Source of the DNA: Escherichia phage JY01
Length of the DNA stretch: 64,000 nucleotides
Direction: 5' to 3' (one strand)
Sequence record: OR995200.1
Part shown: piece by piece, positions 33,624 through 63,737 of the stretch
How the letters are laid out: every line of letters begins with the position of its first letter
How positions within the stretch are numbered: position 1 is the stretch's first letter
Translations under genes and position numbers: made by a program
The notes under the pieces: generated by a model
The model's input: the letters and a program-made list of their open reading frames with translations, nothing else
What the model was told of the DNA's origin: nothing
Database searches by the model: none

Positions 33624-33989
33624 TTAAATATCAAATTCGTTAAGAACTACATCAAAGATTGCTTCAAGATGCTCAGGTTTAGCTCTGTTACTCAGAATAT
33701 GACGAATCCAAGTTTTAACCAGAAGCTTGCGATTAACACCATTCCAGCAAGGATGAGTCCCTAAATCGCGTTGACGAAAATCATCATCCAAAGCGATTTT
33801 GAAGTTGGAACCTTCCATTGTGATTGAAACCGTGATGCCATTTTCAAATCGCATATAAACGTAGTTAGGAGTCATATACTGTTCAATTTCGCATACTGAT
33901 CCATTTTGATGTTTCCAAAGGCAGATAGTATCAATAGAACCTGCAATACCGTTAGAAACATATTTACGTTCAAAGTTGATGTAGTTCAT
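33624..33989 (-). CDS. hypothetical protein
   Basis: 121-aa ORF downstream of an early promoter. Confidence 0.55.
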   Translation of the reverse strand: MNYINFERKYVSNGIAGSIDTICLWKHQNGSVCEIEQYMTPNYVYMRFENGITVSITMEGSNFKIALDDDFRQRDLGTHPCWNGVNRKLLVKTWIRHILSNRAKPEHLEAIFDVVLNEFDI

Positions 33990-34026
33990 TTTTATTCTCC
34001 AAGATGTTTAATTGCGGTACAGGTAT

Positions 34027-34057: not shown

Positions 34058-34390
34058 TTATTTTACTACTTTCCAATGCTGCATGTCAAGTTTACCAACT
34101 TTTTTCATCTTCTCAATCAAACGTTCGGCACGTTGGCGAGCTGTAACATAATACCATTCACCTAATTCATTTTGTTCAATTTTTCCAACGATTACTGTAT
34201 TCAATTCATAAATCCAACCAGTAAAGAAATTATGAACTTGAATTGTAAAGGTGAAATCTGTTCCCATACCTTCTGTTGTTTCTACTTCAATAATATCACC
34301 TTCAACTGCCATTAAGAACCACATAGTTTCATCATATTTACCATTGAAGCATTTAGTTTTAACTGCAGCGTTCAGATTAATCGTTTTCAT
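34058..34390 (-). CDS. hypothetical protein
   Basis: 110-aa ORF with AAGGAGAA SD; early promoter upstream. Confidence 0.55.
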   Translation of the reverse strand: MKTINLNAAVKTKCFNGKYDETMWFLMAVEGDIIEVETTEGMGTDFTFTIQVHNFFTGWIYELNTVIVGKIEQNELGEWYYVTARQRAERLIEKMKKVGKLDMQHWKVVK

Positions 34391-34418
34391 TTTATTCTCC
34401 TTTGTTTGTGTAAGATAA

Positions 34419-37955: not shown

Positions 37956-37985
37956 ATAATATCACAACTCTACCGTAAAGTAAAC
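37956..37985 (-). promoter_or_regulatory. early promoter inside an inverted repeat
   Basis: minus strand: GTTTAC - 18 nt - TATTAT; 7-bp inverted repeat GGTAGAG/CTCTACC (37947-37974) brackets the -10. Confidence 0.5.
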
Positions 37986-46973: not shown

Positions 46974-47834
46974 TTACACCGCCATCTTTCCTTTAATAGG
47001 AGGATGTGATTCATAGTTGTTAAGAACAAAATTATGAGGCTTTGCAAATTGACTCAACCAAAATACCTGCGATTCTGTGTCCCATTCATCAAATTCATCT
47101 GGAAATTTTAATTGTAATTCGCATAAATCCATAGGTTCACGACATAAAATTTCTTTACATTGTTCTACGTGATTCATATAGATATGAGTATTACCACCAG
47201 AAAATATCAAATCTCCCGGAATAAGATTACACATCTTAGCTACAATATGAACTAACGTAGCATATGATGCAATATTAAATGGAAGACCGAGGAAAACATC
47301 TACCGAACGTTGATACCATTGAAGGTCAAGGTATCCATTACGCACATTAAACTGATAGAACATATGACAAGGCGGTAATGCCATATATTTAAGTTCAGCT
47401 GGATTCCACGCAGAAACAATTTGACGCCTATCATTTGGCAGTTTTTTAATACGATCAATAACTTCTATAATTTGATCTACACCGCCAAAATCACGCCACT
47501 GTTTTCCATAAATTGGACCAAGTTCACCGCTATGGTATCCTAAATCTTTTGCTTGATTTTCGTAATTTTCATCCCAGACTGTTTTGCCTTGAATTAATGA
47601 ATCATGTTGAATTAATCGCAAATCATTGACATTTGTGCTTCCTGATAAAAACCATATTAGCTCAGCAATGCATGCATTCCAGGCGAGCTTTTTAGTTGTT
47701 ACTGCAGGAAAACCTTTGGTTAAATCCCAACGCAATTTAGTACCGAACAAAGCAATTGTTCCTGTGCCCGTTCGGTCATCGGTTTCATAGCCATTTTCAA
47801 AAATGTCTTTAATTAAATCTTGGTATTGTTTCAT
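46974..47834 (-). CDS. td: thymidylate synthase
   Basis: 286-aa uninterrupted ORF; active-site region PPCH; no intron. Confidence 0.95.
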
Positions 47835-48247: not shown

Positions 48248-49070
<823 letters not shown>

Positions 49071-49086
<16 letters not shown>

Positions 49087-49430
49087 TGAAAGGGGCCAGA
49101 AGCAAATCCGCTATCTTTAATCATTTTAACTAAAGTTACCATTCCTCTGTTAACTGCTTGCGAGATTTCATCAAAAACTTCATCACTATCACCATAAAGA
49201 TCGCTAAAAAGTTCTAACACGTTCTTCTGAACTTTTAATTTACAGCCAACAAATTCGCCTACAGTAAATTCGTTTCCGCCAACTCCAGCGTAAAACGTAA
49301 TTACACCAGTTAATGGTCTTTCACTAGAACATAGGTCGTGTGATAAATTAATATAAGCCGTCCCGGGTGCAGTTTTAAGTTGGCAACGAATACTTACTCG
49401 AGCAATTCCAGCTACACGAATGTCAGACAT
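49071..49430 (-). CDS. hypothetical protein (frd.2-like)
   Basis: 119-aa ORF. Confidence 0.55.
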
Positions 49431-49440
49431 AATATTTTCC

Positions 49441-49683
49441 TCAAATAGACTTTTTCACAATTTTCCAATCAGCTTTAAACTGATCAACGTCAGAATGATA
49501 AATCCAGAATCCTGCGCTTTCTCCATCCTCATAAAGAGGGCATCTATCACATTCATCTTCCCATCCCATATCACGTAAAAGATGTTCAGCTTTTTCAACA
49601 AGTTCAGAATCTTTACCGATGATATTAAAATACCATTTACCTCTAACTTCCGAATCTTTGATGCTCTGACGTTGTAATCTCAT
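49441..49683 (-). CDS. hypothetical protein (frd.3-like)
   Basis: 80-aa ORF with GGAGAA SD. Confidence 0.55.
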   Translation of the reverse strand: MRLQRQSIKDSEVRGKWYFNIIGKDSELVEKAEHLLRDMGWEDECDRCPLYEDGESAGFWIYHSDVDQFKADWKIVKKSI

Positions 49684-49792
49684 TTTATTCTCCTTAGCAA
49701 GCTTTAATCAAAAGATATAAACAAACTAACATAACTGCTGCCATAATATAAGGTGCGAACATTTTCTTTTCTCCATTAGTTTTGATAGGGTA

Positions 49793-49822
49793 ATAGTATC
49801 ACACTACTACCCTGCTGTAAAC
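49793..49822 (-). promoter_or_regulatory. early promoter candidate with bulged inverted repeat
   Basis: minus strand: GTTTAC - 18 nt - TACTAT; inverted repeat AGGGTA...TACCCT at 49787-49813. Confidence 0.45.
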
Positions 49823-50199
49823 TACTTTTTGAAAGTTTTTCGCAAAAGTTCAATGATTCGATCTACATTGTTTTCGTCAACGATGCAGTGAATTTTTGTT
49901 ACGCCAGAAATCGTGTCTTCGCCTTCATCTTCAGAAATCGGTTCTTTATACTCGCGAAAGCAATAAAATTCGTCTTCGCAAATTTCTGAAAGTCTATCAC
50001 AAAAGTAAAAATGTTTTCCATTGGCGCATTCAATATGTTTTACTGCTTTAAATCCATTATTAAAGAAAACTTCTTTAACTTCAAACCATCCACCATTTTC
50101 TTTGATAATTTTAACTATCGATCCATTAGAACGTGGGCTATGACTAATAAATGCGTCAATGAGACTTGGAACAAGTTCATACTTTTTACCGATATACAT
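49822..50199 (-). CDS. hypothetical Cys-rich protein
   Basis: ORF-track 144 aa; start placed at the internal ATG with GAGGAAAAG SD (125 aa); several Cys (HIECANGKHFYFCD...EFYCF). Confidence 0.5.
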   Translation of the reverse strand: MYIGKKYELVPSLIDAFISHSPRSNGSIVKIIKENGGWFEVKEVFFNNGFKAVKHIECANGKHFYFCDRLSEICEDEFYCFREYKEPISEDEGEDTISGVTKIHCIVDENNVDRIIELLRKTFKK

Positions 50200-50245
50200 T
50201 TTCTTTTCCTCATTTTTAACGGGGTTATTGATAGCCCCTTGATAA

Positions 50246-50516: not shown

Positions 50517-50546
50517 ATAGTACCATGGAAGGACAAGGATGTAAAC
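50517..50546 (-). promoter_or_regulatory. early promoter candidate downstream of the gene 32 terminator
   Basis: minus strand: GTTTAC - 18 nt - TACTAT. Confidence 0.45.
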
Positions 50547-53818: not shown

Positions 53819-53848
53819 ATTATATACCATCCAAATCTTAAAGTAAAC
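53819..53848 (-). promoter_or_regulatory. early sigma70-type promoter for rnh
   Basis: minus strand: GTTTAC - 18 nt - TATAAT (TATATAAT), ~25 bp upstream of the rnh ATG. Confidence 0.6.

Positions 53849-59614: not shown

Positions 59615-63737
<4,123 letters not shown>

Follow-up and report, generated by a model that had tools for sequence, protein, structure and literature searches.

A conserved 22-codon reading frame in front of frd.1 in T-even-like phages: accessory membrane peptide gene or leader?

The question raised by the locus described here is whether a very short open reading frame (ORF) in front of the phage gene frd.1 is a gene of its own, a leader serving frd.1, or an ORF that is open by chance. 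This ORF, called mini-ORF in the following, is located on the minus strand of a stretch of 64,000 nucleotides from Escherichia phage JY01 (sequence record OR995200.1), referred to as the window, and lies inside the 138-nt gap between frd.2 and frd.1. The original prediction, made from the sequence alone, described an unannotated hydrophobic ORF of 22 amino acids with its own Shine-Dalgarno (SD) sequence, which could encode a small membrane peptide or, as a leader peptide, couple translation to the next gene. The comparison with related phages indicates that mini-ORF is, very probably, a coding gene that is conserved but optional and that annotations, T4's included, have missed. The reading favoured here, and considered on balance to be the probable one, is that mini-ORF is a real accessory immediate-early gene for a small membrane peptide that would act in trans, the message then being inactivated by RegB. 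That mini-ORF is not a leader needed for frd.1 is likewise the best reading of the comparisons.

The window was identified as part of a Tequatrovirus genome, with Shigella phage Sf23 as the closest match (98.4%), and the region is matched by 573 phage records. By tblastn, the peptide was found to be encoded in 200 phage records, at one place per genome, which rules out paralogs. The frame is intact in 200 of 200 and contains no indels, so that the conservation of the frame in relatives, proposed as a check in the original prediction, was borne out. The carriers include T4 (AF158101.6, 146018-146083, complement), T6, RB27, RB32, AR1 and PST. An independent blastn search with the 147-nt region likewise gave full-length matches in 200 records; in about 330 others, only the first 60-70 nt, representing the promoter, are matched. 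Since both searches agree on 200 records, every genome containing the DNA has an intact frame, and most relatives are devoid of the DNA.

The absence of an annotation was also confirmed. Among the matches listed (about 90 of the 200 records, those without any annotation included), no coding sequence is annotated at the position of mini-ORF, T4 likewise being without one, and the sole feature there is a promoter predicted in phage Lutter, which covers the ORF 3' end. The ORF was missed because it is below the length limits of gene callers. IMG/VR was scanned with degenerate patterns for the entire ORF and for both of its halves, and metagenomes with the pattern for the C-terminal half; these scans revealed four further copies, all identical to the T4 type. 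Deeper homologs were not found in these pattern scans, the remaining matches being chance matches inside unrelated frames. No similarity to the peptide was identified in Pfam, PHROG, NCBIfam or the PDB (the best match, in PHROG, had an E value of 0.5), and neither plasmids (tblastn) nor E. coli genomes (blastn) contained a match to the peptide or the DNA. By these searches, the family is confined to T-even-like coliphages. A remnant of a longer gene was considered and rejected, since no longer homolog exists in any of the data searched and every copy ends with KAC and the stop codon.

The strongest indication of a coding function comes from the substitutions, which were analysed for ten distinct nucleotide haplotypes. 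The copies in the Dhakaviruses MN04, UP19 and Esco_phi_B-01 differ from the one of JY01 at 13-14 of 66 positions, without any indel. By the method of Nei and Gojobori, JY01 and MN04 are separated by 7.5 differences at 13.8 synonymous sites and 6.5 differences at 49.2 nonsynonymous sites, giving a ratio of nonsynonymous to synonymous rates (dN/dS) of 0.15 (one-sided binomial p 0.0045). The ratio is 0.13 in the comparison with UP19 and ranges from 0.13 to 0.20 against the Dhakavirus copies, with p values for the synonymous bias of 0.002-0.045 in several pairs. Differences within the Tequatroviruses are mostly silent, as for SA21RB and T4, which differ by four synonymous and no nonsynonymous changes. 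Variable sites are distributed over the first, second and third codon positions as 5:2:11, and both second-position changes replace Ala by Val or Ile. The replacements observed are F2L, A8T/V/I, A9V/T, M11I, L12V and V13I, with the segment remaining apolar in each, while MFAPYIM and CLYLLIKAC are invariant. No indel was identified in the ORF, whereas the adjacent upstream leader of 24 nt has indels of 6, 2 and 2 nt between lineages of the same genomes. All five other frames of mini-ORF contain stops. Although the counts are small, the pattern is that of a protein under purifying selection, as judged from these alignments.

The evidence from the single sequence is no more than suggestive. Among 20,000 dinucleotide-preserving shuffles of the 138-nt gap, an ORF of at least 18 codons with SD and ATG, closed inside the gap, was obtained in 208, and in six of these 20,000 it was also as hydrophobic as mini-ORF. 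In the 64-kb window, mini-ORF is the only intergenic ORF of 12-50 codons with SD and ATG and a strongly hydrophobic product. It is the comparative evidence on which the case for a gene rests.

For mini-ORF of JY01, the coordinates 49694-49762, the ATG and the GGAG located 8 nt upstream were confirmed in the sequence and in the ORF list. The minus strand reads ...CTAATGGAGAAAAGAAA ATG TTC GCA ... AAA GCT TGC TAA GGAGAATAAA ATG AGA..., and inspection of the sequence between the upstream in-frame TGA and this ATG revealed no alternative in-frame start. The stop codon TAA (49696-49694) abuts the GGAG (49693-49690), which is followed by a 6-nt spacer and the frd.1 ATG at 49683. TAAGGAG is therefore the stop codon of mini-ORF and the extended SD of frd.1 in one, and the overlap of stop and SD, noted in the original prediction, is conserved in all copies.

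The peptide of 22 residues has a mean Kyte-Doolittle hydropathy of 2.05. The 18 residues from F2 to I19 are uncharged and are followed by the C-terminal K-A-C. This apolar segment is uninterrupted, as for small membrane proteins, and it is barely long enough for a transmembrane helix. A rough sum on the Hessa scale, with position ignored, is slightly negative, which is compatible with a membrane insertion of the peptide. From the single Lys after the core, the positive-inside rule suggests an orientation with the N-terminus outside and the C-terminus inside. As far as a sequence can tell, the reading as a small membrane peptide holds, given the intact frames, the dN/dS of about 0.15, the replacements conserving hydrophobicity and the 18-residue apolar core in front of Lys-Ala-Cys.

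The residues Cys14 and Cys22 are invariant. Lipoprotein signal peptides follow the lipobox rule, with a basic n-region, the motif [LVI][ASTVI][GAS]C and a mature domain following the Cys. A signal peptide of this kind was rejected for mini-ORF, since the core is preceded by no basic residue, Lys occupies position -2, and the chain ends with the Cys, leaving no mature protein. An alternative overlapping frame of 22 codons on the minus strand, MEKRKCSHLILWQQLCWSVYIF (49776-49708), is out of frame with mini-ORF and starts with the ATG within CTAATGGAG. It has no SD and contains stops in the Dhakavirus copies, and was considered as noise.

The comparison of genomes with and without mini-ORF revealed a discrete unit. 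The gap between frd.2 and frd.1 is 138 nt in JY01, compared to 54 nt in T2 (54-57 nt for T2 and MLF4). In the alignment, T2-like phages are without 84 nt, and the absence is clean, the T2 junction being ...CCCTATCAA|CTAAGGAGAATAAAATG. In T2-like phages, in MLF4 and in most Mosigviruses and Dhakaviruses, frd.1 with the same TAAGGAGAATAAAATG or a close variant is located directly behind the promoter, so that these loci consist of promoter, SD and frd.1 with nothing between. In the Dhakaviruses MN04, UP19 and Esco_phi_B-01, mini-ORF is present not at frd.1 but between motB and cef, a gene unrelated to frd.1. Here, the comparison of MN04 with JS98 is informative: the flanks are 98% identical, JS98 is without 88 nt, and cef follows directly behind the leader, with a motB-cef gap of 161 nt in MN04 and 73 nt in JS98. 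Since JS98 contains GAGAGGAAAATAAAATG instead, the TAAGGAGA of cef in MN04, UP19 and Esco_phi_B-01 appears to have arrived with the cassette. From these boundaries, the mobile unit is a segment of about 85 nt consisting of the SD, 22 codons, TAAGGAG and an A-rich spacer. Wherever it sits, the cassette is the first cistron of an early transcript. Since conservation of the ORF extends to two loci with unrelated downstream genes, the conserved entity is the ORF itself and not a gene-specific leader.

The near-identical initiation regions at both ends are repeats, and the cassette seems to enter and leave genomes there. Recombination between such regions is proposed to explain its two locations, upstream of frd.1 in Tequatroviruses and upstream of cef in three Dhakaviruses. 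Cef begins with MTTKITANST in MN04 (locus L004, 981-1010) and UP19 (L022), compared to MAKV(T/A)VNST in JS98 (L066, 494-520) and Esco_phi_B-01 (L023). Either the recombination joint extended into the first cef codons in one lineage, or another cef allele was captured. The leader of mini-ORF in ESh15, CAAAACAAATGAGAGGAAATCAAAATG (locus L007, 870-900), is nearly the same as the cef leader of JS98, CAACAAATGAGAGGAAAATAAAATG (L066, 465-493). Leaders of early genes are shared between loci and genera, and this fits recombination at these sites.

The coordinates of mini-ORF and of the elements around it are given in Table 1.

Table 1. Features of the frd.2-frd.1 region in the JY01 window.
Feature	Position	Strand	Description and evidence
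mini-ORF	49694..49762	-	ATG start, 22 codons and TAA; encodes MFAPYIMAAVMLVCLYLLIKAC
Ribosome-binding site of mini-ORF	49764..49774	-	GGAGAAAAGAA; GGAG (49774-49771) 8 nt before ATG (49762-49760)
SD and spacer of frd.1, candidate RegB/S1 site	49683..49693	-	GGAGAATAAAA, exact copy of the optimum GGAGAAUAAAA; last A is the A of the frd.1 ATG
Direct repeats bounding the cassette (outer span)	49688..49779	-	CTAATGGAGAA (49779-49769) and CTAAGGAGAA (49697-49688); from alignments; the 84 nt between them are missing in T2-like phages
Predicted early promoter of the PeSL module	49793..49821	-	-35 TTTACA (49821-49816), 17-nt spacer with TG extension, -10 TACTAT (49798-49793); promoter scan
Predicted PeSL stem-loop	49788..49812	-	Arms GGGTAGTAGT / loop / ACTATTACCC; overlaps the -10 box; RNA fold -16.3 kcal/mol, z -2.9 against shuffles
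frd.1	49441..49683	-	80 aa, DUF5417, downstream cistron; Pfam PF17438 (E 3e-33), PHROG 1254; annotated as Frd.1 in T4, T2 and Sf23
frd.2	49822..50202	-	126 aa, FRD2 family, upstream gene; Pfam PF03197 (E 8.5e-31) and annotations of relatives; stop abuts the promoter

The promoter in front of mini-ORF belongs to a class with a described role in genome shuffling. PeSLs (promoter-early stem-loops) have been described as cassettes of promoter and terminator through which modules are shuffled within the hyperplastic regions of T4-type genomes (Arbiol et al. 2010, PMC2839356), and the consensus of the PST/T4 PeSL promoters is TTTACW-N17-TAYWAT (Comeau et al. 2014, PMC4122927). The promoter of mini-ORF matches this consensus exactly, and five such matches are present in the window, where 0.36 are expected. 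With the consensus promoter, the associated stem-loop and the location in a hyperplastic region beside ORFs that vary among close relatives, the module around mini-ORF fits a PeSL at the level of sequence. The homologous site in SA21RB is annotated both as a T4 early promoter and as a rho-independent terminator. The other four matches are located at 37956-37984 (-), 50517-50545 (-), 53819-53847 (-) and 59729-59757 (+). The one at 50517-50545 is upstream of frd.3, just after the terminator-like hairpin of gene 32 (50597-50579). A scan of the window revealed no second SD-led hydrophobic mini-ORF behind any of these four.

From the spacing to the -10 box, we infer a transcription start at about 49786 and a leader of 24 nt. 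The stem-loop would form only on read-through transcripts from frd.2. The transcript from about 49786 into frd.1 is predicted to be less structured than shuffled sequences (z +2.26). Predicted probabilities of being unpaired are 0.70 for the SD of mini-ORF, 0.76 for the SD of frd.1 and 0.64 for the ATG of frd.1.

For RegB with S1, the cleavage consensus is GGAGRAYARAA, and the T4 optimum for early mRNAs is GGAGAAUAAAA (PMC1702504, the main text of which makes no mention of frd.1). The exact optimum occurs in three copies in the window, all on the minus strand, compared to 0.40 expected. For the 11-mer at 49683-49693, the mean predicted probability of being unpaired is 0.76, and it thus has the sequence features of a RegB/S1 substrate and is regarded as a candidate site, where a regB-dependent cut during infection would fall between G and A. 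The SD of mini-ORF itself, GGAGAAAAGAA (49774-49764), agrees with GGAGRAYARAA at 10 of 11 positions. The two other exact copies of GGAGAATAAAA, at 33990-34000 and 34390-34400 (-), are the ribosome-binding sites of tandem minus-strand ORFs of 121 aa (33624-33989) and 110 aa (34058-34390).

Taken together, these elements suggest the following course of events for an accessory gene. Host RNA polymerase would start at the PeSL early promoter (about 49786), and ribosomes would load on the unstructured 24-nt leader at GGAG-N8-AUG, so that the peptide would be made in the first minutes of infection. After release, it would partition into the inner membrane and may act in trans on a host membrane component, in host takeover, exclusion or anti-defence, the usual role of variable early genes in such regions; host-adaptation functions are commonly located among such genes behind a PeSL. 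With two GGAG sites, the message is likely a RegB/S1 substrate and would be shut off after the early period. The cassette itself would be gained and lost by recombination between the initiation regions of early genes (CTAA(T)GGAGAA...AAAATG) that follow PeSL promoters.

Several points weigh against this reading. Mini-ORF is dispensable, as about 330 of about 530 related records are without it. No homolog of known function was found, so that the membrane target and the action in trans are purely inferred. The literature search gave no report on ribosome profiling or proteomics of T4 and no direct evidence of translation; it also revealed no mention of the peptide, of frd.1 or frd.2, or of a detection of the peptide. 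The selection statistics come from 22 codons in essentially two deep lineages, the T4 type and the Dhakavirus type, with about 14 differences. T-rich codons make hydrophobic residues likely, and the genetic code keeps NTN codons hydrophobic after changes at the first or third position. Because of this structure of the code, the finding of only conservative replacements is weaker evidence than it appears. Finally, an apolar core of 18-19 residues is rather short for crossing a bilayer.

Three other explanations were weighed against the accessory gene, the first being a cis-acting upstream ORF. Here, translation of mini-ORF would tune the first gene of the early transcript, by re-initiation on frd.1 or cef from a UAA 0 nt from GGAG, by shielding of the RegB/S1 site, or by a pause at the stop codon, dependent on the nascent chain, that could occlude the downstream ribosome-binding site; the peptide would have no role after its release. 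This anatomy is real: the TAAGGAG overlap is retained by every copy, at frd.1 as well as at cef, and the downstream site is the exact RegB/S1 consensus, so that occupancy by ribosomes could matter. The invariant C-terminal nine residues are also what a tunnel-acting arrest peptide would conserve, the comparison being based on leaders of the TnaC/ErmCL type. A uniformly hydrophobic sequence is atypical of known arrest peptides. Monitoring of membrane insertion as for SecM or MifM was rejected, since a chain of 22 residues is still in the ribosomal exit tunnel at termination. Coupling as a requirement finds no support here. The SD of frd.1 is predicted to be open whether or not mini-ORF is translated, and since it is mostly unpaired, nothing needs unmasking at frd.1. 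In the natural deletion variants (T2, MLF4, JS98 and most Mosigvirus and Dhakavirus loci), the promoter is directly followed by frd.1 or cef, which has a strong SD, and this by comparison argues against a dependence of the downstream gene on mini-ORF, and T2 retains CTAAGGAG without an ORF to terminate. The cassette itself carries TAAGGAG, so its conservation needs no selection for coupling. Pure coupling would leave the amino acids unconstrained, yet the dN/dS is about 0.15, and the two downstream genes are unrelated. A leader acting in cis is therefore regarded as unlikely.

The same substitutions bear on the possibility that the block of about 85 nt is a by-product of recombination between initiation regions, open by chance, which spread recently and hitch-hiked with the promoter. 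In favour of this, an ORF with SD, ATG and at least 18 codons was obtained in about 1% of the gap shuffles. The family is narrow, the scans of IMG/VR and of metagenomes having revealed no copy beyond the Tevenvirinae coliphages, and is dispensable in most relatives. By a hand count from the alignment, the ORF diverges by about 21% between the T4 type and MN04, compared to about 23% for the promoter, and is thus no more conserved. However, at a divergence of 21%, a neutral frame of 22 codons would usually have gained a stop, an indel or a polar replacement. The bias to synonymous changes in several pairs (p 0.002-0.045), the restriction of second-position changes to two of 18 variable sites, both from Ala to Val or Ile, the absence of indels in the ORF compared to three in the adjacent 24-nt leader, and the occurrence of so hydrophobic an ORF in only 6 of 20,000 shuffles make a fortuitous ORF a quite improbable explanation. 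A nucleic-acid element in place of a coding sequence, such as a structured RNA, a small RNA, an antisense promoter or a protein-binding DNA site, could account for the weak sigma-70-like match on the opposite strand inside the ORF (49718-49747, 9 of 12 positions) and for the promoter predicted over the ORF 3' end in the Lutter record. But 9/12 matches are common in this AT-rich DNA (6.1 are expected in shuffles of the region), the transcript has less structure than its shuffles, no Rfam match exceeds chance (best E 0.61), and the substitutions follow the codon positions of one frame. Such an element is very improbable. Thus, the accessory gene for a membrane peptide remains the preferred reading.

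A more far-reaching version of this reading is put forward tentatively and is rather doubtful at present: the block of about 85 nt would be the smallest self-contained gene module of the T-even phages, made up of the SD, 22 codons and a RegB-type SD for the next gene, and mobile between early units via recombination at PeSL promoters at one end and at the early-gene initiation or RegB sites at the other. Its product would be a trans-acting transmembrane peptide by which one specific inner-membrane protein of the host is disabled or hijacked, for example, a transporter, a protease or a defence effector anchored in the membrane. If this were true, the peptide would be the smallest functional T4 protein. 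Mini-ORF alone opens no long-standing question. Despite decades of manual annotation of T4, the reference genome of a very large group of phages, mini-ORF is missing from its annotation. If mini-ORF is translated, an immediate-early membrane peptide, the shortest T4 protein, would be added to the host-takeover repertoire of T4. In addition, T2-type and T4-type phages, as well as JS98 and MN04, are natural pairs which differ by the cassette alone, and these pairs could be used to study the roles of micro-genes and the initiation regions of early genes as joints for recombination.

The order of the genes on the minus strand around mini-ORF is 59, 32, frd.3, frd.2, the gap, frd.1, two extra small ORFs, frd and td. 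The two ORFs between frd.1 and frd code for 119 aa (DUF7247, 49071-49430) and about 81-85 aa (PHROG 3183, 48829-49074/49086), both on the minus strand. This pair (48829-49430) is absent from T4, where frd directly follows frd.1, and its presence differs among Sf23, AR1, OES_C-1 and ESh30. These genome comparisons show that the stretch between frd.1 and frd varies in gene content and that the region is plastic. The td gene, coding for thymidylate synthase (46974-47834, minus strand), is a single unbroken ORF of 286 aa in JY01. In T4, td is interrupted by a group I intron that carries I-TevI. Since td of JY01 is a single ORF, compared to the split T4 gene, it is apparently intron-less.

For the comparison to known systems, coupled leaders of the TnaC/ErmCL type resemble mini-ORF in that a gene is immediately preceded by a short ORF whose stop codon lies inside the downstream ribosome-binding site. 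For mini-ORF, the stop next to the downstream ribosome-binding site was found, but a masked downstream initiation site was not. Mini-ORF further differs from these leaders in that the natural deletions keep the SD, two unrelated genes are served, and the peptide is uniformly hydrophobic.

A closer likeness is seen to the small inner-membrane proteins of bacteria with less than 50 aa and their own ribosome-binding site, like AcrZ, MgtS, MgrB, KdpF and CydX. The size class, the single hydrophobic helix, the basic residue after the helix, the independent SD and the omission from annotations are shared. In contrast, mini-ORF has no sequence similarity to these proteins, is encoded by a phage, is predicted to be expressed early and, with 22 aa, is shorter than nearly all characterised members. 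The type I toxin peptides, with Ibs (18-19 aa), ShoB (26 aa), TisB (29 aa) and Hok (about 50 aa), are also very short and almost wholly hydrophobic and act on the inner membrane. Their genes have a repressing antisense RNA and a structured, blocking leader, unlike mini-ORF, whose leader is predicted to be open with a strong SD. On the antisense strand of mini-ORF, only the 9/12 promoter match at chance level was identified, with no conserved antisense feature and no Rfam match, and E. coli genomes and plasmids contained no homology to mini-ORF. By analogy, the small bacterial membrane proteins with a single helix are the closest counterpart of the mini-ORF product, which could also work like a type I toxin peptide; a phage early gene damaging or depolarising the host membrane is conceivable. 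By its sequence, it is a member of neither group. For T4 itself, Stp, an early peptide of 26 residues acting on the host EcoprrI/PrrC system, is a precedent for a specific role of an early peptide of about this size in the conflict between phage and host. However, Stp is polar, soluble and unrelated in sequence, and the product of mini-ORF is smaller and predicted to be directed to the membrane.

Finally, mini-ORF resembles the cargo of PeSL cassettes (PMC2839356, PMC4122927) in its location in a hyperplastic region directly behind a consensus promoter with an overlapping hairpin, in its presence or absence between very close relatives, and in the occurrence of the same cargo at a second PeSL-headed locus, motB-cef. 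It differs in the size of the cargo, with 22 codons being far smaller than the ORFans described for PeSL shuffling, and in the downstream junction, which is a conserved early-gene initiation region (TAAGGAGA, A-rich spacer and ATG) and not a second PeSL. By kind, mini-ORF is of a familiar type, namely accessory cargo of a PeSL that would encode a small hydrophobic early phage protein.

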